Shown here: positions 7,797 through 55,517 of the stretch, one piece after another
Layout of the letters: every line of letters begins with the position of its first letter
How positions within the stretch are numbered: the first letter of the stretch is position 1
NCBI GenBank assembly: GCA_031549705.1
Contig: JAVBPI010000043.1
Coordinates: 30,770 to 94,769 of the forward strand
DNA length: 64,000 bases
Direction of reading: 5' to 3'
DNA from: Thermoguttaceae bacterium
Lineage (GTDB): Bacteria > Planctomycetota > Planctomycetia > Pirellulales > Thermoguttaceae
The notes under the pieces: generated by a model
What the model saw: only the letters and a program-made list of their open reading frames with translations
Told to the model about the DNA's origin: nothing
Databases searched by the model: none
Position numbers and translations under genes: made by a program

Positions 7797-9071
7797 TTAC
7801 AGCGGCGGCTGCCCACCCATTCCCGGTTGGGCTCCACCCATTCCCGGTTGGGCTCCGCCCATCATTCCCGGTTGGGCTCCGCCCATCATTCCCGGTTGGG
7901 CTCCGCCCATCATTCCCGGTTGAGCTCCACCCATCATTCCCGGTTGAGCTCCGCCCATCATTCCCGGTTGGGCTCCACCCATCATTCCCGGTTGAGCTCC
8001 ACCCATCATTCCCGGTTGAGCTCCACCCATCATTCCCGGTTGAGCTCCACCCATCATATTCGGGTCGGTTCCCATACCAGGCTGCATTCCGCCTCCCATC
8101 ATATTATTCGGGTCGGTTCCCATCCCCATTCCCTGTTGCATTCCGCCCCCCATTTGCATTTGCTGTTGCTGCAAGGCGAGCTGTTCGGCGGCAACTTTCG
8201 GGTCCCAGCTTCGAATATCGTCTTCGGTGAAGTCGATGCCATCGTATCCGGCGGACCAAACCGCGGGTTTCCGGTCACCGGTCTTGGGATTGACTCCGTT
8301 GACCAGCGTGTACTCATATCGGAACGGCAAACCCCACGGATCCAACGGAACCGAGTCGCTCGTCAAATAGGGGTCGGGGCGTTTCCGGGCGTTCACATAA
8401 AGCTGCGGATTGTAGGTCGGTTGCGTCCATCCGGAACCGACCATTCCGGTCTGTCCGCTCATCATTCCGGGTTGGCCCCCCATCATGTTATTCGGGTCGG
8501 TTCCCATGCCCATGCCGGGTTGCATGCCGTTCCCCATCATATTCGGGTTGGCGCCCATTCCCCCCATTCCGGTTATTCCACCGGGGGGCGTGTTCATATT
8601 CATGTTGCCGCCGACCGGCGTCGCTCCGGCACCGCCCATATTCGGATCGGTCCCCATTCCCATGTTAGGCTGCATTCCGCCCATTCCCTGGCCGAACGCT
8701 TCCGCGCCGCCGACAGGGGTTGCGCCCATTCCCATTCCGGCGTTCGGATCGTTCGGATTAGCGGTTCCCGGCTGCATCGGCATTCCGGTACCGGTCTGCC
8801 CTTCGTTCTGTGGAATGTAAATCAACGCGTTCAACCCCTGTTCCGTGGTCGGAAACGCCCCGTGGTCGACGAAATACGCCTGAAGTGCTTTTTCGAGGTT
8901 CTTCACCCACGATTCCGCGATTCGGACGTTCGATTTGTTCCGGTACGACATCACCGTCGGAGCGAGAATCGCGAACAACGCCACGATGATCGCCAACACA
9001 ACGAGGAGCTCAAGCAGCGTAAAGCCGGAGTTGTCCTGCCGCGCCGATGGTCGAATATTCGATAAATTCAT
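7797..9071 (-). CDS. Type II secretion pseudopilin GspG-like protein with Met/Gly/Pro/Gln/Asn-rich insert and repeat tail
   Basis: It has a prepilin cleavage/methylation motif (G-FTLLELLVVLAIIV). GspG core blocks are present: FPTTEQGLNALI, DPWGLPFRYEY and VWSAGYDGIDFTEDDIRSWD. A low-complexity insert of about 150 aa sits after the N-terminal helix region. The C-terminal tail ends in about ten GAQPGM(M)G units. Confidence 0.85.
   Translation of the reverse strand: MNLSNIRPSARQDNSGFTLLELLVVLAIIVALFAILAPTVMSYRNKSNVRIAESWVKNLEKALQAYFVDHGAFPTTEQGLNALIYIPQNEGQTGTGMPMQPGTANPNDPNAGMGMGATPVGGAEAFGQGMGGMQPNMGMGTDPNMGGAGATPVGGNMNMNTPPGGITGMGGMGANPNMMGNGMQPGMGMGTDPNNMMGGQPGMMSGQTGMVGSGWTQPTYNPQLYVNARKRPDPYLTSDSVPLDPWGLPFRYEYTLVNGVNPKTGDRKPAVWSAGYDGIDFTEDDIRSWDPKVAAEQLALQQQQMQMGGGMQQGMGMGTDPNNMMGGGMQPGMGTDPNMMGGAQPGMMGGAQPGMMGGAQPGMMGGAQPGMMGGAQPGMMGGAQPGMMGGAQPGMMGGAQPGMMGGAQPGMGGAQPGMGGQPPL
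7812..8050 (-). repeat. Tandem 24-bp (two 21-bp) coding repeat encoding (GAQPGMMG)n
   Basis: There are eight near-identical units (cccatcattcccggttgRgctccRc on the plus strand) plus two shorter units lacking one Met codon. Variation is only R = A/G at two positions. Confidence 0.9.
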
Positions 9072-13254: not shown

Positions 13255-15000
13255 TCAGGGGAGAACCCGGTAGAAAAAGCGTCCTTCCGGGGCGGTGTCG
13301 CCGTTCAAATAGAGGTCCATCGGATCGCCGGGGGACTGGGCGTTGTCGATCCATTTGAAGTCGGGCAATTTTTCGGACGTTTTCATTTCCAGTAACGAAA
13401 TCGGAACACTCAGCTGCAATTCGTTGCCGACCATCTTGTAGTCGACCTTGCCGACGGTCTTCCATTCCCAAGCATTGCCGACAATTCGTTCGACGCTCAT
13501 CGTCGTGCCGTCGGTTTGGCGACCGATCAACACGTCACCGCCGATCCAACCGGTTTTCAAATCGTGGTCCGTGTCGAGGAGCAACCAGACCCCATGTGGG
13601 ACCGGCGACGGCTTGATCGGTTCGACCGTCTTCAGGTAGAAATAAACGTTCTTGTCGTCTCTCACGATTTTCGAAACGGATAAATCGTTCCGGCCGCTCG
13701 TGTTTCGAATCGGCCTGCCGACTTGGTCGAGATGGTCGCGGTGGATGGTTTCGCCGTGATGGTCCCGCAATTCAGGAGCAACGTCGTTCCATTGGCTCAT
13801 CGGACCATTCAAGTTGATCGTTTTCGGAGCGGAAAATTTCGGCAGCGACGGAACTCCTTTGTACTTGCGAACACCTTCGACGAGTTGCATGTAATAGCTG
13901 TCGCCGTGTCCACCCTTCACCGGCTCAATGTCGCGGCTGTGCTCGGCATCGAATTGGTCGACGAACGCAACCGGCTGCCCCGGATATTGCCAACGCCCGG
14001 CGATCCATTCGTTCCAACCCGTTACGAAAACGACCGGCGGGTCGAGTTCATAAGCCCGCTTCCACTGTTCGGCGAAGTTGTGTCCCTTTTCCGTTTCCCG
14101 GGGATACTCCGTCAACCCGTCGTGAAAGGAGCGGCCCCGGGCGTTTCCGGAGCTCATATTCGTTACAGTTCCGTCTTTCCGGGACAAATTCTGCGCAACG
14201 GAAACATTAACCATCTCCGGCTTTTTCGGATCGGTCGTGTATCCGTACGGTTGCGGATACGTCGCTTCCCAATGCCAGGCGAACGGCGTATCGACCATTT
14301 GGAACGGCCAATGGGCTTTACGCAACGTGAAAAACGCCTTGAGTTCGTCGTCCGCGGCGGCCGGGTCGCAGATCATGAGCGGTTTGTCGTCCCACTGGAA
14401 CCAGAGTTCGCGGTAGTCTCCCGGTTTGTAGAGATCGTCGTAGATTTTCCGTGCCGTTTTTCCCGCCTCCGTGTTCACCATGAACGCGATCTGCGGCGTC
14501 TTCTCCCCTTGGGCACGGAGTTCCGAGAAAACCTTGCACAAAGCCCGATACGCTTTCGGATACGTTACGGCGTTTGTCGTGTCGAAAATCAGGAAGTCGA
14601 TTCCCGCATCGGACAAGAGGTAAGCGTGCCGCCGGAGCACCCACGGATCGTCGGTTTTGTAATATCCGTACAGCGGCTCGTTCCAATAATGGGACAAGCC
14701 GACCTGATTCGTCCAAAGCTCCATGTTCGGTTTTTTGACCGCATCGGGATCGAGCTTGAGAACTTGCGAAACGTCCGGCGGGCCGTCGTGGTACGCCGCT
14801 TTCGGGAGCGTCGCGTCGTGCCAGAGGAAATAGAACATTGCCGTAACGCGATTCGGTTTCGTCGAAGAAATCGTCTGTGCCGTTTCGACCGGTCGTTCCA
14901 AAGCGTCGATGCCCGGCCAAGGGGTTCCGTCATTCTGTGCGAAAATCGACGAAACCGACAGCAAGAATAGGACGGCGACCGCCCATCGGGAGAGAGTCAT
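13255..15000 (-). CDS. Secreted protein, possibly glycoside-hydrolase-like; function uncertain
   Basis: It has a signal peptide (MTLSRWAVAVLFLLSVSSIFA). The N-terminal region (FYFLWHD..WNEPLYGYYKTDDPWVLRRHAYLLSDAGIDFLIFDTTN) looks like a TIM-barrel glycosidase-type domain, and the C-terminal ~150 aa looks like a beta-sandwich. The gene is confident; the product name is not. Confidence 0.6.
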   Translation of the reverse strand: MTLSRWAVAVLFLLSVSSIFAQNDGTPWPGIDALERPVETAQTISSTKPNRVTAMFYFLWHDATLPKAAYHDGPPDVSQVLKLDPDAVKKPNMELWTNQVGLSHYWNEPLYGYYKTDDPWVLRRHAYLLSDAGIDFLIFDTTNAVTYPKAYRALCKVFSELRAQGEKTPQIAFMVNTEAGKTARKIYDDLYKPGDYRELWFQWDDKPLMICDPAAADDELKAFFTLRKAHWPFQMVDTPFAWHWEATYPQPYGYTTDPKKPEMVNVSVAQNLSRKDGTVTNMSSGNARGRSFHDGLTEYPRETEKGHNFAEQWKRAYELDPPVVFVTGWNEWIAGRWQYPGQPVAFVDQFDAEHSRDIEPVKGGHGDSYYMQLVEGVRKYKGVPSLPKFSAPKTINLNGPMSQWNDVAPELRDHHGETIHRDHLDQVGRPIRNTSGRNDLSVSKIVRDDKNVYFYLKTVEPIKPSPVPHGVWLLLDTDHDLKTGWIGGDVLIGRQTDGTTMSVERIVGNAWEWKTVGKVDYKMVGNELQLSVPISLLEMKTSEKLPDFKWIDNAQSPGDPMDLYLNGDTAPEGRFFYRVLP

Positions 15001-15044
15001 GGGGCTCGGCGGGGAAGAGGATTATGTACGGAGTACCAAACTCC

Positions 15045-15184
15045 GTCATCCCCGCGAAGGCGGGGACCTAGAGAATAGACGCGAACATTTTTTGCACACG
15101 GATCCAATGGGATTCGTCCGTTGATTGCGTGTGCAAACGGTCAACAAAACCATTCGTCCAGGTCCCCGCCTTCGCGGGGATGAC
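15045..15184. repeat. REPIN-like element, repeat family 1
   Basis: The arms are GTCATCCCCGCGAAGGCGGGGACCTAGA (15045-15072) and its inverted copy (15157-15184). It lies between the rplS stop and the start of the downstream gene. Confidence 0.8.
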
Positions 15185-15206
15185 GAAAAATGATTTCACT
15201 GTCGAT

Positions 15207-15647
15207 TTATTCGGCCTTGGGGGCTTTCGCGGTCTTTTGCTTCCCCTTCGAACCGCGACGAACCTTCTTGACGGCGGTCTCGGCGGTCACTTTGCGTTCG
15301 ACACGACGTTCCTTGAGACGGACCGCTTTGCCGACACGATCACGGAGGAAGTACAGCTTCGCACGGCGAACCACGGCGCTGCGGACGACTTCGACCTTGG
15401 CGATGCGCGGCGAGTGGAGCGGGAACTTTCGTTCGACCCCTTCACCGGCAACGATTCGTCGCACCGTGAACATTTCACGCGTTCCGCCGCCGCTGCGGGC
15501 GATCACGACGCCGTTGAAAATTTGAGTCCGTTCTTTTTCCCCTTCGAGGATCCGGCAATGAACGTTGACGGTATCACCGATTTCAAACTCCGAGACTTCC
15601 GCCTTCTTGCTGTGCGCCTCGACGATATTAAGTAGTTTCTGGGACAT
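15207..15647 (-). CDS. rplS: 50S ribosomal protein L19 with basic C-terminal extension
   Basis: The sequence MSQKLLNIVE..FEIGDTVNVHCRILEGEKERTQIFNGVVIARSGGGTREMFTVRRI..GVERKFPLHSPRIAKVEV is unmistakably L19. The ATG is at 15647. The listed start at 15737 reads through the heptamer array. Confidence 0.95.
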   Translation of the reverse strand: MSQKLLNIVEAHSKKAEVSEFEIGDTVNVHCRILEGEKERTQIFNGVVIARSGGGTREMFTVRRIVAGEGVERKFPLHSPRIAKVEVVRSAVVRRAKLYFLRDRVGKAVRLKERRVERKVTAETAVKKVRRGSKGKQKTAKAPKAE

Positions 15648-15655
15648 GATATAAA

Positions 15656-15752
15656 CGTGGTTCGTGGTTCGTGGTTCGTGGTTCGTGAAGAATTCATCAT
15701 CGACGGCCGGCTTTCTAAAGCACGAACCACGAATCACGAATCACGAATCACG
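15656..15752 (-). repeat. Inverted pair of heptamer arrays at the trmD/rplS junction
   Basis: On the plus strand, 15656-15687 is (GGTTCGT)x4, which reads ACGAACC on the coding strand and ends 8 nt before the rplS ATG. 15721-15752 is CACGAAC/CACGAAT units and overlaps the trmD stop. A 33-nt spacer lies between them. Confidence 0.9.
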
Positions 15753-16447
15753 GTAATCAAATCTGGTCTTTTTTCTTTCGTTCGTTCCAAACTGTTTTGC
15801 TCTCTCCAGCGGGCGATTTCGGCGTGGTTGCCGCTGAGGAGCACTTCGGGAACTTCAAGTCCCCGGTATTCTCTGGGCCTCGTGTAATGAGCACAGTCCA
15901 ATAATCTCTTTCCGGGACAAACACCGTCGGACGAAAACGAATCAAACCGATTCGAGTCTTCGTCCCCCAGCACACCGGGGATCAATCGCATCACGGCTTC
16001 GATCACGACCATCGCCGCGACCTCACCGCCGTTGAGCACATAATCGCCGAGGGAAATCTCCTCCGGTTTCAGGAGGTTCACGATTCGCTCGTCAAATCCC
16101 TCGTACCGTCCGCAAAGCATCAGCAAGCGTTTTTCGTTCGCCAATTCCTCCGCAAGCCGCTGGTCGAACCGTCGTCCTTGCGGCGTAAACATCAACAAAC
16201 GACCCGATTCAGGTTCACGGCTCCGAACGTCTTCGACAGACGGCACAACACAATCGGCTTTCAGCACCATTCCTGGACCGCCGCCAAACGGTCTGTCGTC
16301 CATCTTCGCATGCTTATCGGTCGCCCAATCCCGCATGTTGTGCAACCGGACCGCCAGTTTTTCCGCGTCGATCGCCGCTTTCAACATGCTTTCCGAGAGA
16401 AAACCCTCAAAAATTCCCGGGAATAACGTGAAAACATCGAAGTCCAT
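15734..16447 (-). CDS. trmD: tRNA (guanine37-N1)-methyltransferase
   Basis: Motifs present are MDFDVFTLFPGIF, DDRPFGGGPGMVLK, LMLCGRYEGFDERI and SLGDYVLNGGEVAAMVVIEAV. The last codons (..IRDS-stop) are encoded by the heptamer array. Confidence 0.95.
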   Translation of the reverse strand: MDFDVFTLFPGIFEGFLSESMLKAAIDAEKLAVRLHNMRDWATDKHAKMDDRPFGGGPGMVLKADCVVPSVEDVRSREPESGRLLMFTPQGRRFDQRLAEELANEKRLLMLCGRYEGFDERIVNLLKPEEISLGDYVLNGGEVAAMVVIEAVMRLIPGVLGDEDSNRFDSFSSDGVCPGKRLLDCAHYTRPREYRGLEVPEVLLSGNHAEIARWREQNSLERTKEKRPDLITVIRDS

Positions 16448-16493
16448 TGGCCGTAAACGCCGGAACCTTCGGTTCGCGGGCTAAACAGGGAAA

Positions 16494-16961
16494 CTATTCC
16501 GCGGCCGCTTCAGTGGCTACCGGTGCTGCAACCGCTTCTTGAACGGCAGCTTGGGCCTTCGCTTCGACGGCTTCAGCGGCTTTTGCGGCCTCGGCGGCTT
16601 TTTCCTTCTTCGACTTGACCTTCAACGCCGGCGGCAGTTCGGTCGGAACCGACGGACGACGACGCAACGTACCAAGTCGGGCGACGGCCGCTTTCTGCGC
16701 TTCGAGGTGGGTTCCCTTCGTGCCGTATTTCTTGACGAGCGTCGCAACGCGGTCCGACATTTGGGCACCGACGGAGACCCAATAGTCGATCCGTTCGTTG
16801 TTCAGAACGGCGCGGGCGTCCGTTTCGGGGACCATCGGATCGTAGTATCCGACTTCTTCGATCACTCGACCGTCACGCGGGGAGCGAGCGTCGGTAACGC
16901 AAACACGGAAAAACGGTCGATGCCGCCGTCCCATCATCTTCATGCGAATTTTGACTGCCAT
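16494..16961 (-). CDS. rpsP: 30S ribosomal protein S16 with Ala/Glu/Lys-rich C-terminal extension
   Basis: The sequence begins MAVKIRMKMMGRRHRPFFRVCVTDARSPRDGRVIEEVGYYDP. The ATG is at 16961. The listed longer ORF translates the heptamer array as (EPRTTNH)n and is not credible. Confidence 0.95.
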   Translation of the reverse strand: MAVKIRMKMMGRRHRPFFRVCVTDARSPRDGRVIEEVGYYDPMVPETDARAVLNNERIDYWVSVGAQMSDRVATLVKKYGTKGTHLEAQKAAVARLGTLRRRPSVPTELPPALKVKSKKEKAAEAAKAAEAVEAKAQAAVQEAVAAPVATEAAAE

Positions 16962-17059
16962 GGTTCGTGGTTCGTGGTTCGTGGTTCGTGGTTCGTGGTT
17001 CGTGGTTCGTGGTTCGTGGTTCGTGGTTCGTGGTTCGTGGTTCGTGGTTCGTGGTTCGT
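16962..17059 (-). repeat. 14 perfect tandem copies of GGTTCGT (ACGAACC on the coding strand) directly abutting the rpsP start codon
   Basis: The 98 nt equal 14 x 7 with no mismatch, and there is no spacer before the ATG. Confidence 0.95.
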
Positions 17060-17073
17060 ATACCACGGCACGT

Positions 17074-17445
17074 CTACGACTCGCGATCCTGTTTAACTTT
17101 TGTACGTTTTTTGATTGAAACAGCCAGTCGATGCAGCATTGCCGATATTCGATTCGTTGTCGCAATACATTGTTTTCCGAAATCTTCGGGAAAATACCCG
17201 ATATTAATTCCGACATACAGTTGCGAGCGAACTTCGCCGCACGATCCCTTTGCATATCGGAGGAACAACAATAAATCTTTCGAAGTGTCTCGATCTGATC
17301 CTTCTGCAATGTTGCTTGAAATGGAAAGAGCAGCACGAGTAATCTGATCCCTGAATCCCCTGTCTTTCAGTGTAGATGTACTGGAATAAATATCCGCAGC
17401 CAATTGAACGGCGACTTTCCAAACATCCAAATCTTCAAAACGCAT
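17074..17445 (-). CDS. Four-helix-bundle protein (23S rRNA intervening-sequence protein / Avd-like family)
   Basis: Family hallmarks as I recall them are present: MRFEDLDVWKVA, SISSNIAEG and GSCGEVRSQL. It is about 120 aa. I chose the ATG at 17445. The listed start at 17463 is a GTG inside the repeat arm. Confidence 0.8.
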   Translation of the reverse strand: MRFEDLDVWKVAVQLAADIYSSTSTLKDRGFRDQITRAALSISSNIAEGSDRDTSKDLLLFLRYAKGSCGEVRSQLYVGINIGYFPEDFGKQCIATTNRISAMLHRLAVSIKKRTKVKQDRES

Positions 17446-17460
17446 TGGTTCCCTCTTCTT

Positions 17461-17492
17461 CACGAATCACGAACCACGAATCACGAATCACG
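17461..17492 (-). repeat. Heptamer array (CACGAAT/CACGAAC units), inverted partner of 16962-17059
   Basis: The sequence is cacgaatcacgaaccacgaatcacgaatcacg. It overlaps the ffh stop codon, so ffh also ends ..RDS-stop. Confidence 0.9.
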
Positions 17493-18968
17493 TTTTTTCT
17501 TCTCTTTCTTCTTTTTTTCTTTTTCTCGTTTTTTGCGGGCTTCTTCTTTTTCTTTCGTGGTAAGCCGTTTGCCGGTTCCTTTTTTGACTTGCTGGATTCC
17601 GGCGGTCGGGTTGTTCGACATCATTTGGGTGAGCTGCTGCATCGCGCCCATTCGGTCCCGCATGTTCATCGACGACATCGACTTCATCATTTCGGCCATC
17701 GGGAGAAACGCCTTGATGAGGTCGCTCACCTGATTCGGTTGCACCCCGGCTCCGGCGGCTATTCGGCGTCGACGGCTCTGGTCGATCACCTTCGGATTCC
17801 GTTTTTCCTCGGCCGTCATCGAGTCGATGATTCCGCCGACCCGTCGCATTTCGTCGTCGGCGTCGACATTCATGGAGCCCATCATTTTCGTGATTTGGCC
17901 CATTCCGGGAATGAGTCCCAGCACTTTGCTGAACGAACCGAGCCGTTTCGCCTGGCCCATTTGGTTCCGGAAGTCGTCAAGCGTGAACTCCCCTTTGGCA
18001 AGGCGTTCCTGCTGCTTTTCGAGCGCTTCCTTGTCGAGCTTTTCGGTTGCCTGCTCGATGAGCGAGAGCATGTCCCCCATACCGAGAATTCGGCCCGCCA
18101 TCCGGTCGGGGTGGAACTCCTCAAGGGCTTCGACCAGTTCACCGGTTCCGATATACTTGATCGGAACCCCGGTAATATGTTTGACGGAAAGAGCTGCTCC
18201 ACCACGAGCATCACCGTCGAGCTTCGTGAGAATCACGCCGTCGAGTTCCAACGCCTCGTTGAACGCTTTGGCGGAGTTCACGGCGTCCTGACCGGTCATC
18301 GAGTCGACGACGAAATAGACCTGATCCGGCTTGATCTGCTGCTCGATCCGCTGGAGCTGCTTCATCAGCTCCTCGTCGATATGGAGACGACCGGCGGTAT
18401 CAAGAATCAGGACGTCGACGCCGAGCGATTGGGCTTTCTTGACGGCGTTCAGGCAAACGAGAACGGGATCTTTGTTTTCGCGGTCGGTGTGGACCGGAAC
18501 GCCGATCGATTTACCGAGAATTTCGAGCTGGTCGATCGCTGCCGGACGCTGAAGGTCGGCAGCAACGAGCATCGGTTTGAGATTGCGCTTGACGAGCAGC
18601 TTGCCCAATTTACCGCATGTCGTCGTTTTTCCGGAGCCCTGCAAGCCGCAGAGCATAATCACGCTGAGCGAACCTTTCGGCTTGAGATGCAGGTCGTGAT
18701 CGACGGGCCCCATAAGGGCGATCAACTCTTCGTGGACGATCTTGACGAGCTGTTCGGTCGGGTCGAGGAGTTTCAGGACATGTTCGCCGAGAGCCTGCTC
18801 GGTGATTCTCGCCATGAAATCCTTGACGACGGGGAAGCTGACGTCCGCTTCAAGGAGCGATTGGCGAACGAGTTCGAGCCCTTCGCGCATATTCGATTCC
18901 GTGAGCTTTCCCTTCCCTCGAAGGGTCCGAATCGCGGACATCAAATTGTCTTGGAGGTTTTCGAACAT
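17481..18968 (-). CDS. ffh: Signal recognition particle protein Ffh with Lys-rich tail
   Basis: It has the N domain, GTPase motifs GLQGSGKTTTCGKL, DTAGRL and TKLDGDARGG, and a Met-rich M domain. Confidence 0.95.
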   Translation of the reverse strand: MFENLQDNLMSAIRTLRGKGKLTESNMREGLELVRQSLLEADVSFPVVKDFMARITEQALGEHVLKLLDPTEQLVKIVHEELIALMGPVDHDLHLKPKGSLSVIMLCGLQGSGKTTTCGKLGKLLVKRNLKPMLVAADLQRPAAIDQLEILGKSIGVPVHTDRENKDPVLVCLNAVKKAQSLGVDVLILDTAGRLHIDEELMKQLQRIEQQIKPDQVYFVVDSMTGQDAVNSAKAFNEALELDGVILTKLDGDARGGAALSVKHITGVPIKYIGTGELVEALEEFHPDRMAGRILGMGDMLSLIEQATEKLDKEALEKQQERLAKGEFTLDDFRNQMGQAKRLGSFSKVLGLIPGMGQITKMMGSMNVDADDEMRRVGGIIDSMTAEEKRNPKVIDQSRRRRIAAGAGVQPNQVSDLIKAFLPMAEMMKSMSSMNMRDRMGAMQQLTQMMSNNPTAGIQQVKKGTGKRLTTKEKEEARKKREKEKKKKEKKKRDS

Positions 18969-19193
18969 GATTCACTCAGGCGTTCGCCTGTTTCGGTACG
19001 GATCGAACCGTAGATCAGGAAAAATCGTAAAAACCGTCAGAAAAAGAGGTCGAGGTCTACTCGAACTCGTTTCCGGCGATATAATTCAATCTGGTTGGGA
19101 AACGGCACTGTTCGGGAGTTTCCCGGAAAATCTCTATATTATCAGGAAAGTTGGCGTTTTGACAATGAGGGACTCACCGCTTTTTTATTGATT

Positions 19194-19234
19194 CCTCTCC
19201 GCTCTCCCTTGGGAGAGAGCTAGGGTGAGGGACG
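19194..19234. repeat. Short palindromic element, repeat family 4 (CTCTCCC..GGGAGAG core)
   Basis: The sequence is cctctccgctctcccttgggagagagctagggtgagggacg. Related copies are at 19323-19355 and 42761-42796. Confidence 0.6.
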
Positions 19235-19322
19235 TTTGACGTTAAAAGCGTGTAAAATTTGCATGAATAAATGGTTGACGAACAGGATTTTTCAGCGATT
19301 TCCCATCATTTGCGACACAGAG

Positions 19323-19355
19323 CCCCTAACCCTCTCCCGGGGGGAGAGGGGACGG
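19323..19355. repeat. Short palindromic element, repeat family 4
   Basis: The sequence is cccctaaccctctcccggggggagaggggacgg, a perfect CCTCTCCC/GGGAGAGG hairpin. Confidence 0.6.
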
Positions 19356-19393
19356 TAGGTCGGACCTAACTCACTTCAGACACATACGGAAAT

Positions 19394-20623
19394 ATGTCTT
19401 CTTTCACGAAAAACCTTATCGCCGCACTGATGTTTCTGGCGGCTTTTCCTTCGTTGTTGGTCGCCCAGTATCCGATTGCACAGCCGTACTATTATGGTCC
19501 CCCGGGACGAGGGCCGATCGTTCAACCGTCGTATCGTCCGGCGCCGATGTATCGAACGAACTATCCGCCGATTTACAACTCGCCGATGCAGCAGCAGGCG
19601 TTTGCGGAACGGATCAACCGTGCCGAATCGGATTGGACGCGGCACATGATCAAGCCGGAAGACCGTTTTCACGATTTCAAGACGGTCGCCAAAGGGGCGA
19701 AATGTGAGTATCGCTTCGAAATTTACAATCCGTTTGTAGAAAAGATTCACATTGCCGACGTCAGGGCGAGTTGTACCTGCACGACACCGATTGTCGAAAA
19801 AGAAGAGCTGGAAACCTACGAAACGACGGCGATTGTCGCCCATTTTCACACGGAACGGCTGAACGGCTTCAAAAACGCGACCCTCACCGTCGTCATTGAT
19901 AAGCCGTATCCCGCCGAATTCCAATTGCAAGTCCAAGGAAACGTCCGCACCGACATTTCGGTCTCCCCGACGGAAGTTCGCCTGGATAACGTCAAAGAAG
20001 GAACCGAAGCGTCCCGAACGATCAGTATCGTCTACACCGGCAACAACACGGCTTGGAAAATTCTCGATTTCAAGAGCGCGAACAAACACCTTTCCGGTGA
20101 AATCGTCGAAACGCAAGCAACTCCCGGACGGGTCGTGTTCAAGGTCAAGGTCACGCTTGACGCTTCCGCTCCAAAAGGGGAAATCAACGATCGAATTTTC
20201 GCGATTTCCAACGATTTGGTTAATCGGCGTGAAATTCCGATCATGGTACGCGGCGTCGTCGGAAAGACCTTGACCGTGACGCCGCCGACTCTTTTCCTCG
20301 GTACGCTGGAGCCGGGCGAAAAGTCGTCCGACAAGGATGTTATGGTTTTAGGCTCCGAACCGTTCAAAATCACCAAGATTGAAAGCGACGATCCGAACGT
20401 CAACGTCGACTTCGACGCCGCATCGAACACGGAGGCGAAACGATTTTTTCGGGTCAAGGTGCGATTTTTGAACCCGGCAGGGGGGTCTAAAAAACTCGAC
20501 GAGGACGGCAAACTCCTTTCCGTCGTCAAAATCGAAACCGATGACCCGAACGTCAAAACGGCGTTCAATGTTACCGCAGGAGTCGTCAAAAAACGTGCTG
20601 ACGCGGCGGATAACCAACCATGA
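19394..20623 (+). CDS. DUF1573 domain-containing protein (three Ig-like modules)
   Basis: It has a signal peptide. The first module has the family signature HDFKTVAKGAKCEYRFEIYNPFVEKIHIADVRASCTCTTP. Confidence 0.8.
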   Translation: MSSFTKNLIAALMFLAAFPSLLVAQYPIAQPYYYGPPGRGPIVQPSYRPAPMYRTNYPPIYNSPMQQQAFAERINRAESDWTRHMIKPEDRFHDFKTVAKGAKCEYRFEIYNPFVEKIHIADVRASCTCTTPIVEKEELETYETTAIVAHFHTERLNGFKNATLTVVIDKPYPAEFQLQVQGNVRTDISVSPTEVRLDNVKEGTEASRTISIVYTGNNTAWKILDFKSANKHLSGEIVETQATPGRVVFKVKVTLDASAPKGEINDRIFAISNDLVNRREIPIMVRGVVGKTLTVTPPTLFLGTLEPGEKSSDKDVMVLGSEPFKITKIESDDPNVNVDFDAASNTEAKRFFRVKVRFLNPAGGSKKLDEDGKLLSVVKIETDDPNVKTAFNVTAGVVKKRADAADNQP

Positions 20624-22762: not shown

Positions 22763-24496
22763 TCAGTTGGCGTATTTCATGCGAAGATAATCGAACATGT
22801 CTTTGTTGTCCGGTGAGAAATGATTGGCTCCGCTTTCCAAGTCCGGAAGCACTTTGTTGAACCAATCCTTCGCGGAGCTTGTTCGACCGACCGTATCCAG
22901 TGCCTTGGCGAGGTGCATGACGTAAATCGGACGCTGGCATGAAAGTTCGACGCATCGTTCCAACACGGGAATCGCTTCGTCCGGTCGACTGTCGTTCATG
23001 AGAACGAGTCCTTTCGAGTCGAGCAGGATCACGTTGTCCGCCTGATCCTTTTTCATGGCGGCGTTGATGATATTCAACGCGCCTTCGTTGTCTTTCATCG
23101 TCGTTGAATAGATCATCGCAAGATTGTTCTGAAACAAGACATCGTCCGGTTTCGCTTTCAATCCGCGTTCATACAACGGAATCGCCCGCTCCGGTTTTCC
23201 ACGAACGATCCAGAAGTCGGCCAACGGAACCAGTACGTCGGGGTTGTCGATCTGTTTCGGTTCGGCGCCGACGTCTTCAAGTCGGTTATCGAACGTCACT
23301 TCGAGCTTTCCGGTCATCGGGCCCGTCAATTTGACGCCGCCGATGTCGGTAAGGTTTGCCCATTCGACATAGTATCCGCCCTTGATCGGCGTGATTTTGG
23401 GGGGCGCTGCCGGAGCTTGGGGATCGGTTGCCGGATCATATTTTTCCGCAGCGGACAACGAAGGGGTCGTTCCAACATGTTCGGCACCGGTTGCGGAAAG
23501 TCGTTCGCCGCTTCCACGGAGTTGCGTGGACGCTTCGGACAAAATCTTTTGAACTTCGGCGGCACGACTATCACCGGTTCCGACCGATTGAAGTCGTTCG
23601 GCGGCTTGCGTCAGAATTCCCTGGATTTCACCGGCGCGGGTTTGACCCGTCGGCGTCGCTTTCAGATTTCGGACGGCTTCGATCAGCGCCCCTTGAATTT
23701 CGGTATCCCACGCCTCGCCGGTTGCCGTCAGGTTCAACCGTTTTCCGGCTTGGGAGATTGCTCCTTGAACTTCATCGTTCCAACCGGCATGGGCGCCGGC
23801 GTTGGCGGAAAGACGCTCACCGCTTCCACGGAGTTGCGAGGTCGCTTCCCCCAGAATTTTCTGGACTTCGGCAGCACGGGCATCACCGGAACCAACCGAT
23901 TGGAGCCGTTCGGCGACTTTCGCCAAGGCTCCTTGAATCTCGTCGCCGCGTGTCTGGCCGGTCGAGGTCGCTTTCAACCGCTTGGAAGCCTCGGAGAGCG
24001 CTCCCCGGATTTCGTTGTCCCATGCTTCACCGGACGCTGTCGATGTCAGCCGCTTGCCGGTTTCGGAAAGAATTCCCTGAACTTCATCGTTCCAACCGGC
24101 GTGGGCGCCGGCGTTGGCGGAAAGACGCTCACCGCTTCCACGGAGTTGTGTGGAAACCTCCGAAAAAATCTTCTGAACTTCAGCGGCCCGCGCTTCGCCG
24201 GACTTGACCGATTGCAACCGTTCGGCGGCTTTCGTCAACACCCCTTGAATGTCTTCGCCGCGTGTTTTGCCGGTCGACGTTGCTTTCAAATTTCGGACCG
24301 CTTCGACGAGCGCTCCTTGAATCTCGGTATCCCACGCTTCGCCGGACGCCGTCGATTGGAGCCGTTTTTCAGCTTCGGAAAGGACACGCTGAACGTCGTC
24401 GTTCCAATTCGACGCGTCTTGAGCCGACAAAAGGCGGCCGACAACCAAAACAACCACGCCAAGGACGAAAGGAAGGGAGAATCGAATCGTTTTCAT
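22763..24496 (-). CDS. Secreted repeat protein with C-terminal TPR domain
   Basis: It has a signal peptide, three tandem 104-aa units each built from four ~26-aa helical sub-repeats (..EIQGAL.EA.KRL..T..G..), and TPR-like helices (AIPLYERGLKAKPDDVLFQNNLAMIY..). Confidence 0.8.
   Translation of the reverse strand: MKTIRFSLPFVLGVVVLVVGRLLSAQDASNWNDDVQRVLSEAEKRLQSTASGEAWDTEIQGALVEAVRNLKATSTGKTRGEDIQGVLTKAAERLQSVKSGEARAAEVQKIFSEVSTQLRGSGERLSANAGAHAGWNDEVQGILSETGKRLTSTASGEAWDNEIRGALSEASKRLKATSTGQTRGDEIQGALAKVAERLQSVGSGDARAAEVQKILGEATSQLRGSGERLSANAGAHAGWNDEVQGAISQAGKRLNLTATGEAWDTEIQGALIEAVRNLKATPTGQTRAGEIQGILTQAAERLQSVGTGDSRAAEVQKILSEASTQLRGSGERLSATGAEHVGTTPSLSAAEKYDPATDPQAPAAPPKITPIKGGYYVEWANLTDIGGVKLTGPMTGKLEVTFDNRLEDVGAEPKQIDNPDVLVPLADFWIVRGKPERAIPLYERGLKAKPDDVLFQNNLAMIYSTTMKDNEGALNIINAAMKKDQADNVILLDSKGLVLMNDSRPDEAIPVLERCVELSCQRPIYVMHLAKALDTVGRTSSAKDWFNKVLPDLESGANHFSPDNKDMFDYLRMKYAN
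23476..24418 (-). repeat. Three tandem 312-bp coding repeats
   Basis: Near-identical stretches recur, for example ggcgccggcgttggcggaaagacgctcaccgcttccacggagttg near 23789 and 24101. The protein period is 104 aa. Confidence 0.8.
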
Positions 24497-30479: not shown

Positions 30480-31271
30480 ATGTCCGCCCCCCTCAGAATA
30501 CGGCTGAAAGAACTCAACGAAGATCTGGCGAAGATGCTCTCCGAGTGTTACGCCGGAAGAACCCCGTTGATCTTCCCTGAAAAGCGCAACCGCGAAAGGA
30601 GAGTCTCCGAACAGGAATCGAGAGTACTGTTCTGCCAACTGTTGAACGGCAAGGGACTCCGGTATTCGGTGGAAGCTCCGACGACCAACAAATACTGTTT
30701 TCAAACCGGAAAAGAAGAAAAACCTCGGAGCGGTAACACGGACATGTGCATTTACGATGAATGTGATAAGAAAATCGTCAACATCGAACTGAAGTCCGGC
30801 CAACCGGGGAGCAAAGGAATCAGCATCTCCAAAGATTTGGAAAAATTGATCTGCGAAAACGTGGAATGTGATAGCAGCGGTGAACCGGTTCAAATACGGG
30901 ATCCCCTCGTTCTCGGTAATTGGTTTCATACGCATGTGATACGTAAACCGGAATCTGGAGTACGAAAATCAGAGACACGCAAAGAGAAATCATTGCCGAC
31001 TCTCTTGGAAAAATTTCACAAGAACATGATTGACGTGGTGAACGAAAACAAAAGAATCAACGCCATGCCGGACCTTCTTTCAAAACTACCGATCCACATT
31101 CTGTTCAGCTTTATCGTGTTGGACGAACAAACGCCGAATGAATATGATTTCGTTTCGGAATGGTTCGATTTCGATGGCAACGGCAGCGAAAAATTGGACC
31201 AATACTCGGAGCGTTTTTTTGTCAAAAACGACGGCATCCTGAAATCTTCGCATAAAAGACATCATGTCTGA
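30480..31271 (+). CDS. Hypothetical protein with possible PD-(D/E)xK nuclease core
   Basis: It is A+T-richer than its neighbours. The arrangement E45/E47 ... D88 (TDMCIY) -x14- E103-L-K105 (VNIELK) fits a restriction-endonuclease-like motif. The opposite-strand ORF 30294-30935 has junk-like composition and is rejected. Confidence 0.55.
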   Translation: MSAPLRIRLKELNEDLAKMLSECYAGRTPLIFPEKRNRERRVSEQESRVLFCQLLNGKGLRYSVEAPTTNKYCFQTGKEEKPRSGNTDMCIYDECDKKIVNIELKSGQPGSKGISISKDLEKLICENVECDSSGEPVQIRDPLVLGNWFHTHVIRKPESGVRKSETRKEKSLPTLLEKFHKNMIDVVNENKRINAMPDLLSKLPIHILFSFIVLDEQTPNEYDFVSEWFDFDGNGSEKLDQYSERFFVKNDGILKSSHKRHHV

Positions 31272-55483: not shown

Positions 55484-55492
55484 CGGATTTGT

Positions 55493-55517
55493 CGTGGTTC
55501 GTGGTTGGCGATTCGTG
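55493..55517 (-). repeat. Heptamer-related motif in the 5' leader of the giant Fn3 gene
   Basis: On the coding strand, CACGAATCGCCAACCACGAACCACG ends 9 nt before the ATG at 55483. Confidence 0.7.

Follow-up and report, generated by a model that had tools for sequence, protein, structure and literature searches.

In the window (the whole stretch of DNA analysed here, 64,000 nucleotides of contig JAVBPI010000043.1 from a Thermoguttaceae bacterium, positions 30,770 to 94,769), the operon that encodes Ffh, TrmD and the ribosomal proteins S16 and L19 carries tandem arrays of the heptanucleotide ACGAACC and of its inverted partners GTGATTC and GTGGTTC. We consider it probable, at roughly 0.6, that these arrays form the arms of two copies of a single slippage-prone intergenic hairpin element that took the place of the native spacers. 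The feature is real and not random, and it is an ACGAACC/GTGGTTC variant of inverted heptamer arrays, a class that has been described before but is still unexplained. What is new here is that heptamer arms bracket an Avd-like gene of the 23S rRNA intervening-sequence (IVS) protein family, that this arrangement is widespread and family-specific, and that it provides a testable context for both the repeat class and the protein family. We refer to these proteins as IVPs (23S-rRNA-IVS proteins, also S23p or Avd-like four-helix-bundle proteins; PF05635/TIGR02436). The anatomy of the arrays, the gene family, the recurrence across phyla, the specificity for IVP genes, the turnover between relatives and the unit-sized indels described below are direct observations.

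Two heptamer hairpins between ffh and rplS

All features of the operon lie on the minus strand, in the order ffh, IVP gene, rpsP, trmD and rplS, as given by the list of open reading frames (ORFs) and, for the four named genes, by Pfam. An earlier note on this DNA, made from the letters alone, had described 14 perfect ACGAACC units that abut the rpsP start codon with no spacer and no Shine–Dalgarno (SD) site, and the sequence bears this out. Tandem Repeats Finder (TRF) gives 14.1 copies, 100%, at 16961-17059; the array itself (16962..17059) forms the 3' arm of the ffh/rpsP pair and is followed directly by ATGGCAGTCAAAATTCGC, which encodes the conserved S16 N terminus MAVKIRMK (rpsP, 16494..16961, ATG start, Pfam Ribosomal_S16). 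The inverted 5' arm, GTGATTC GTGATTC GTGGTTC GTGATTC GTG, was recovered both by TRF (17460-17492, 4.7 copies, 92%) and as an inverted-repeat pair (17461..17492). It overlaps the 3' end of ffh (17481..18968; Pfam SRP54, SRP_SPB and SRP54_N), the last three codons and TGA stop of which (17483..17481) come from the repeat.

A smaller hairpin, with no ORF, fills the spacer between trmD (15734..16447; Pfam tRNA_m1G_MT) and rplS (15207..15647; Pfam Ribosomal_L19). Its 5' arm, three GTGATTC units followed by GTGGTTC and GTG (15721..15752; TRF 4.6 copies, 96%), again overlaps the end of the upstream gene. The loop spans 33 nt (15688..15720) and was delimited, like the 5' arm, by inverted-repeat search and folding. 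The 3' arm, (ACGAACC)4 plus ACG (15656..15687; TRF 4.6 copies, 100%), ends 8 nt before the rplS ATG (15647), as previously noted, with tttatatc in between. Both ffh and trmD finish inside the upstream arms with CGT GAT TCG TGA, that is, with RDS and a stop, which also agrees with the earlier reading; in TrmD, the conserved C terminus ...KRPDL is followed by the repeat-encoded tail ITVIRDS and TGA (15736..15734). With up to two mismatches allowed, the double unit ACGAACCACGAACC has 23 matches in the window against 1.65 expected, and none of 100 shuffles reached 23.

The arms within the window are 86-93% complementary. Those of the ffh/rpsP pair, 32 nt long, are 91% complementary and pair in the minimum-free-energy structure. 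For the trmD/rplS hairpin, the predicted energy of the sense RNA is -45.6 kcal/mol (z -6.8), with 31 pairs and three A.C mismatches, and that of the antisense RNA is -58.8 kcal/mol (z -9.4). The contrast drawn earlier between A.C mismatches in the sense strand and G.U pairs in the antisense strand is correct. The accompanying picture of two paired stems held only in part: the 33-nt loop at trmD/rplS stands, and 402-470 nt separate the ffh and rpsP arms, but this loop of about 400 nt is not empty, as it holds a 123-aa ORF. Since that ORF is an IVP gene, the pair is better seen as an IVS-like cassette than as a long-range regulatory stem.

The GTGATTC unit contains TGA, and 7 is not a multiple of 3, so that the array gives stops in all three frames within 21 nt; in the 5' arms, the stop codons of the upstream genes come after 9-18 nt. 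No start, stop or SD-like sequence occurs in any frame of the ACGAACC unit. Given these properties, only the purine-first order lets the 5' arm end the upstream gene and keeps the downstream leader clean, whichever strand is transcribed.

IVP genes between inverted heptamer arms

The gene in the ffh/rpsP loop (17074..17445) encodes a basic protein of 123 aa (pI 9.4), and a GAGGGA motif lies 7 nt ahead of its ATG. The protein matches PF05635 (23S_rRNA_IVP, E 1e-28) and NCBIfam TIGR02436 ('four helix bundle protein', E 1.5e-26), both above the curated cut-offs, as well as NF008912, likewise above its cut-off, and PDB entry 2GSC (XCC0516, E 4.5e-12). The PF05635/S23p family is encoded in stem-loop IVSs of some 23S rRNA genes, which have inverted repeats of about 28 bp and are excised by RNase III, and 2GSC represents the homopentameric toroids that the family forms (PMC4990558). 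The family is homologous to Avd, the nucleic-acid-binding protein of diversity-generating retroelements (PMC10053308).

All IVP genes that we inspected were bracketed by heptamer arms, namely that of the window, one each from a deltaproteobacterium (L070), a member of the Flavobacteriaceae (L058) and Dehalococcoidia (L021), and two from Clostridia (L028). A G/T-rich arm lies just before the IVP start, and a complementary A/C-rich arm follows the stop, directly ahead of the start of the next gene. Cassettes differ in unit sequence, and the arms within each cassette are complementary. The two IVP genes far from the ACGAACC arrays by which the loci had been selected use units of their own, GAGGTTA/TAACCTC in L028 and AGTTYGT/ACAAACT in L021.

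The inverted-arm arrangement is specific to IVP genes. In a metagenome sample of 80 IVP loci picked by protein similarity alone, the complementarity score between upstream and downstream flanks was at least 34 for 28 of 65 IVP genes, compared with 1 of 93 neighbouring ORFs (Fisher 4e-12, Mann–Whitney 9e-20). Period-7 arrays were present in 42.6% of 136 IVP flanks and arrays of periods 4-6 and 8-11 in 0-1.5%; the period-7 rate in all 150-nt windows was 3%, a contrast that overstates the specificity because most of these control windows are coding. Of 41 cassettes, 28 had the stop of an upstream ORF at or near the 5' arm, and 23 had a downstream start no more than 20 nt from the 3' arm. IVP genes were co-oriented with the upstream neighbour in 47 of 58 cases and with the downstream neighbour in 32 of 46. 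Two metagenome cassettes, L175 and L186, are identical over 967 nt save for a 14-nt, two-unit array indel, which shows that slippage occurs.

The same plan is found in the Xanthomonadales. The XCC0516 orthologues recovered from Xanthomonas, Pseudoxanthomonas and Lysobacter all have accB on one side and accC on the other. Four GGGAATN units make up the 5' arm, which starts 3-9 nt past the accB stop, and the called IVP start falls inside this arm in Pseudoxanthomonas (L215), Lysobacter (L217) and Xanthomonas sp. A2111 (L214); the 3' arm, four NATTCCC units, ends 0-10 nt ahead of the accC ATG. These arms are the GGGAATC repeats described in PMC4692102.

Some IVP loci depart from the common form. 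The 3' arm at L219 (470-515) has a period of 8 (TTCACTCT x3.5), not 7, beside an IVP that is 62% identical to that of the window. At L162 (1187-1468 and 2218-2305), the IVP gene adjoins TAACTGA and CTGACAA heptamer arrays, which hints that the TAACTGA repeat class co-occurs with PF05635 genes too. Many of the IVP-bearing contigs are only 0.5-3 kb long.

Relatives of the locus and of the repeat

By its TrmD homologues, the organism belongs to the Planctomycetaceae. The best 120 homologues of TrmD all end in ...KRPDL(L) plus a variable tail, and none ends in RDS. In L122, with a TrmD 80% identical to that of the window, there are no arrays, and AGGAGAA SD sites precede rpsP, which has a TTG start, and rplS. 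In L120 (TrmD 87% identical), rpsP keeps GAGGAG and a GTG start, and heptamer hairpins of other units are found between rpsP and trmD (AGTGAAC.../TGTTCAC) and between trmD and rplS (AGTGAAT.../TATTCAC, which stops 7 nt short of the ATG); as in the window, the upstream stop codons come from the 5' arms. Comparison with L120 and L122 indicates that, in the lineage of the window, arrays replaced the native spacers and SD sites and the rpsP start became ATG.

In related Planctomycetaceae, the spacer between ffh and rpsP is a hotspot for insertions. L120 (3486-4470) has an unknown 128-aa gene and a PIN-domain gene there, with no IVP, and L121 (484-2579) and L122 (1928-4023) have a 68-aa gene together with genes for a ParE toxin and for HSDR_N. 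The closest IVP homologue found, 69% identical, lies between dxr and rseP in the assembly of L121, with arms of GTGAATG and CACATTC type; thus, the cassette sits in different operon spacers in related genomes. Just past the ffh stop of L120 (3486-3500) is CGTGATCCG, one mismatch from the window arm unit CGTGATTCG at the equivalent place, which may be left over from an older arm or match by chance.

A scan for (ACGAACC)4 in one genome per species found at least 119 loci, and the counts that follow refer to the loci listed. They span Acidobacteriota, Planctomycetota, Verrucomicrobiota, Bacteroidota, several proteobacterial classes, Firmicutes, Synergistota, Chloroflexota and Actinomycetota. The earlier note had proposed tabulating the distance of such copies to start codons and the class of the genes. 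Positional bias was clear: an ATG-initiated ORF of at least 80 aa began within 15 nt of the array in 21 of 117 cases in the ACGAACC orientation and in 1 of 102 in the opposite one. No gene class was favoured, the downstream genes being diverse housekeeping genes (ArfB-like, radical SAM, RibBA, SpoU methylases, a SerA-like dehydrogenase, AccA and others). Long open frames ended at or near the array in 42 of 113 cases in the GGTTCGT orientation, compared with 22 of 98 in the other orientation and 241 of 1190 random windows. Where two arrays lay within 300 nt of each other, the order was GGTTCGT array, loop, ACGAACC array in 16 loci and the reverse in none. We found no support for a phage vector, as (ACGAACC)4 occurred in only 8 viral contigs and no close IVP relative was present in viral contigs.

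The window holds a third sense-oriented tract just before a start codon, the degenerate ACGAATC GCCAACC ACGAACC ACGAC (55491..55516, minus strand), which has no inverted partner and is separated by 7 nt from the ATG (55483) of the 1747-aa ORF that follows. Elsewhere, the Planctomycetota metagenome-assembled genome (MAG) maxbin.317 has a genome-specific palindromic family, CATTGCCCC-(GGTTCGT)4-GGTTCCGC-loop-GCGGAACC-(ACGAACC)4-GGGGCAATG, at L026, L034, L056, L076, L092 (5650-5780), L105 and L106. It often lies between divergent ORFs and so appears to contain SD-like GGGG/GGAGG and ATG for both sides. In a betaproteobacterial MAG (L059, 2296-2344) and a Pseudoxanthomonas MAG (L075, 3334-3396), (ACGAACC)7-9 stands 11 nt upstream of a gene for a SpoU/RlmB-type rRNA methyltransferase; this shared placement could reflect coincidence, old conservation or transfer.

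The earlier note knew of no described feature class for such arrays, which was incorrect, as heptamer arrays had already been reported (PMC4679880 and PMC4692102). They are the most abundant long simple sequence repeats (SSRs) in prokaryotes according to Mrazek 2007, as cited in PMC4679880. TAACTGA heptamers (MacGregor 2015, PMC4679880) occur in Beggiatoaceae, Cyanobacteria and Bacteroidetes, mostly end 1 nt before start codons, those in ribosomal-protein operons included, and consist almost entirely of solo direct repeats, one case being inverted. Similar to these, the window arrays end 0 to a few nt before starts, over the expected ribosome-binding site and in a ribosomal-protein operon, and the spread across phyla is patchy; some TAACTGA arrays also overlap the end of the upstream ORF. 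By contrast, the window arrays are inverted pairs of another unit, and no gene was reported with TAACTGA.

There is also a likeness to the GGGAATC heptamers of Xanthomonas and Nostoc (Rehm et al. 2015, PMC4692102), which are transcribed, prefer about four units and vary in length between strains. In Xanthomonas, they form 70-75 convergent inverted pairs between co-oriented genes, with the G-rich arm at or over the stop and the complementary arm less than 50 bp before the next start. The window arrays match this in being 7-nt tandem units with 4.6, 4.6, 4.7 and 14.1 copies (about four preferred, with occasional expansion), in their convergent arrangement between co-oriented ORFs with the purine/G-rich arm first, in the ffh and trmD stops within the 5' arms, and in 3' arms that end 0 and 8 nt before ATGs. 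They differ in displacing the SD sites of ribosomal-protein genes and in lacking G3 tracts. A G-quadruplex role was proposed for GGGAATC, with no gene association noted (PMC4692102); for the window unit a G-quadruplex is ruled out, since GTGGTTC, GTGATTC and ACGAACC contain no GGG and at least four tracts of three or more G are needed. Neither the ACGAACC repeat string nor a link between PF05635 and heptamers was found in the searchable literature.

As in the 23S IVSs of Coxiella, Leptospira and Brucella (PMC4990558), a PF05635/S23p ORF occupies the loop of the window cassette between terminal inverted repeats (about 28-32 bp in IVSs). Those IVSs are sporadically distributed in a way that suggests horizontal transfer, have no promoter of their own and ride the host transcript, to which the window element can be likened. 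However, the window cassette occupies the spacer of two protein-coding genes, ffh and rpsP, instead of 23S helix 9, 25 or 45, and its stem is made of tandem heptamers. The IVP of the window is basic and homologous to Avd, a pentameric four-helix bundle (PMC10053308). The locus as a whole is not a diversity-generating retroelement: it has no reverse transcriptase and no template-repeat/variable-repeat (TR/VR) pair, its neighbours are ffh, rpsP, trmD and rplS, and repeat searches gave only the heptamer arrays. Phase-variation SSRs, which control surface or host-interaction genes through changes of frame or promoter spacing, were also rejected, as the flanking genes are essential housekeeping genes (diverse housekeeping genes elsewhere) and the arrays lie outside conserved coding sequences.

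Repetitive extragenic palindromic sequences and bacterial interspersed mosaic elements (REP/BIME), Correia/NEMIS and other intergenic elements, palindromic or like MITEs (miniature inverted-repeat transposable elements), are co-transcribed and can affect mRNA stability or processing. The window hairpins resemble them as short imperfect palindromes in operons, just after stops and in many copies. Unlike REP/BIME and Correia/NEMIS, their arms consist of tandem heptamers whose copy number varies, no RAYT or other transposase partner is present, no target-site duplication (TSD) is recognisable, and the only cargo is a non-transposase gene.

Origin of the arrays and competing explanations

If the arrays are arms of a single element, the ffh/rpsP copy would be the full cassette, comprising the 5' arm, the PF05635 gene and the 3' arm, and would transfer the plan of an ORF-bearing 23S IVS to an mRNA operon; the trmD/rplS copy would be an ORF-less version built from the same unit. 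The purine/G-T-rich 5' arm would now terminate the upstream gene and the A/C-rich 3' arm would serve as the downstream leader in place of an SD site, with whole units gained and lost through slippage. The element would be transcribed with the operon and the IVP expressed through read-through. The only sigma-70-like promoter match in 15100-19300 lies upstream of ffh (19136..19165, minus strand), with which one ffh-IVP-rpsP-trmD-rplS transcript is consistent, without being proved, and the hairpins were not flagged as intrinsic terminators in a scan of the same interval. No Rfam family was significant and no rRNA was detected in 15000-19400, and exact-protein look-ups for rpsP, trmD and P0002 returned no record.

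By analogy with 23S IVS stems (PMC4990558), the RNA stem may form and be cut by RNase III, which would part the cistrons and leave an unstructured, ACC-rich leader. With the stops 9-18 nt inside the 5' arms, a ribosome that terminates there should melt the outer stem, which is paired to the nucleotides beside the downstream ATG; it would thereby free the adjacent start and keep translation coupled across the insert. Such an element may spread or persist as a largely selfish passenger, tolerated for its stop, leader and coupling properties. Template switching at quasi-palindromes, which is familiar from the general literature, could keep its arms matched. The roles put forward in the earlier note, that is, RNase III stems, a slippage-prone array, a translational leader and a protein-binding array, remain reasonable candidates.

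Several observations weigh against the interpretation that the arrays belong to one spacer-replacing element. Period-7 arrays were found next to IVP genes in 13 of 33 cases and in 8 of 28 other spacers of the same contigs (p 0.43), so that array presence alone is not IVP-specific. ACGAACC arrays are mostly solo, and 4 of the 119 loci listed hold IVP genes (five in total) within about 8 kb. No transposase or integrase is visible with the element. The L120 and L122 spacers differ in composition and offer no clean empty site, and no TSD, the criterion for a MITE or insertion sequence, was recognisable, as the spacers look replaced and not simply interrupted. In Xanthomonadales, the cassette is kept at one site across genera and looks domesticated or neutral and vertically conserved, not actively mobile. 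Folding of full-length RNAs predicts that the rpsP and rplS leaders are substantially paired, and efficient translation would therefore need an extra opening step. Arms across the sampled cassettes are only about 83% complementary, and their mismatches (30 G.U in sense, 44 A.C in sense and 154 transversions) show no wobble bias for the folding strand either way and are uninformative; selection for pairing of the sense RNA is not demonstrated, given that the sense-strand mismatches in the window are A.C. Units also differ between pairs within single contigs, and in Pseudoxanthomonas the IVP arms are GGGAAT and the solo arrays in the same genome ACGAACC. These cases contradict a rule of one IVP and one unit per genome and argue against a simple sequence-specific trans factor.

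One alternative is that ACGAACC tracts were selected as a host-beneficial translational leader, for instance a standby site, an SD-independent enhancer or a site for S1 or a Csp-like protein, that serves rpsP and rplS initiation, with the IVP and the inverted partners incidental. The arrays lie 0, 8 and 7 nt before three ATGs of the window, their sense orientation ahead of start codons is strongly biased in other genomes, and the same idea was put forward for TAACTGA repeats (PMC4679880). Functional-looking SD sites of essential genes were replaced, so initiation must work without them, and SD-like motifs are scarce before window ORFs in any case (5 of 36, against a 10% background). However, a leader would account neither for the inverted partners nor for the stops in the 5' arms nor for the specific bracketing of IVP genes; in addition, units differ widely between elements, which argues against one sequence-specific factor, the downstream genes belong to no particular class and the leaders are predicted to be partly paired. 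We therefore regard this explanation as rather improbable. Neutral slippage, in which arrays arise and expand where tolerated, template switching matches the arms and the positions reflect purifying selection against harmful placement, would account for the unit-sized indels between otherwise identical sequences, the high diversity of units with one element of period 8, the arrays common in many spacers of IVP contigs and the dominance of heptamers among long prokaryotic SSRs that PMC4679880 reports, citing Mrazek 2007. It leaves unexplained the exclusive period of 7, the GGTTCGT-first order in 16 of 16 pairs among the loci listed, the identical ACGAACC unit in more than 10 phyla, the bracketing specific to IVP genes and the long-term conservation of the cassette in the accBC operon, and we judge it improbable.

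It is also conceivable that the arrays are putative binding sites for the IVP itself, which would act as a TRAP-like ring on about 4-5 periodic RNA or single-stranded DNA motifs, with IVP cassettes autonomous and ORF-less pairs non-autonomous. The IVP of the window is basic, and its family forms pentameric toroids (PMC4990558) and is homologous to a nucleic-acid-binding protein (PMC10053308); three of the four window arms have 4.6-4.7 units, and four are preferred in Xanthomonas (PMC4692102). Each unit combines a conserved 4-5-nt core with variable positions, the cassette and the ORF-less hairpin of the window share one unit, and in the GCA_003324365.1/L120 clade the GTGAATG/CATTCAC IVP arms resemble the ORF-less hairpin units TATTCAC and TGTTCAC. 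Against this stand the Pseudoxanthomonas mismatch described above, single contigs that carry pairs with three different units, and IVPs 50-64% identical to that of the window with unrelated units; we regard binding of this kind as quite improbable. An assembler that created the arrays or their copy numbers is highly improbable. At least 14 of the 119 related arrays are at contig ends (L008, L015, L030, L038, L048, L050, L074, L077, L093, L099, L102, L108, L116 and L118), and because such arrays break assemblies the window count of 14 units is uncertain. But the four arrays are in register with the frames, stops and starts of four conserved genes, and the same architecture recurs in independent assemblies, including the complete or long-read genomes L066, L088, L007 and L214.

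A broader form of the element hypothesis, which we regard as unlikely but worth stating, holds that PF05635 proteins and inverted heptamer arrays make up one widespread element, in which the pentameric Avd-like protein recognises or propagates 7-nt-repeat hairpins, IVP cassettes are autonomous, and the far commoner ORF-less pairs and solo arrays are derivatives. If so, the derivatives would include much of the prokaryotic excess of heptameric SSRs, and such elements would be capable of usurping the interval between essential genes, with its stop, spacer and ribosome-binding region.

The bracketing of IVP genes places two puzzles in one architecture, namely the dominance of 7-nt SSRs between stop and start codons and the role of a common IVS-protein family. 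This architecture recurs from Planctomycetota to Xanthomonas, where accB-IVP-accC is a test case that lends itself to genetics. Heptamer arrays can displace the SD sites of essential, highly expressed genes (S16, L19 and AccC), which is relevant to initiation without SD sites and to the coupling of translation across inserted elements. In practical terms, the arrays break short-read assemblies and mislead gene callers, which read through them into extended S16 and TrmD models: rpsP of the window appears as an open frame of 280 aa, and the gene call for trmD of L120 begins upstream of the (TGTTCAC) array.

Two other repeats in the window lie within minus-strand ORFs. A 24-nt unit repeated 10 times in tandem (7818-8057) encodes the C-terminal (GAQPGMMG)n of a 424-aa Gly/Met/Pro/Gln-rich protein (7797..9071), the N terminus of which (FTLLELLVVLAII) resembles by eye a prepilin-type methylation signal. 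A 312-nt unit present 2.9 times (75% identity; 23493-24407) encodes three repeats of about 104 aa in a secreted-looking product of 577 aa (22763..24496).

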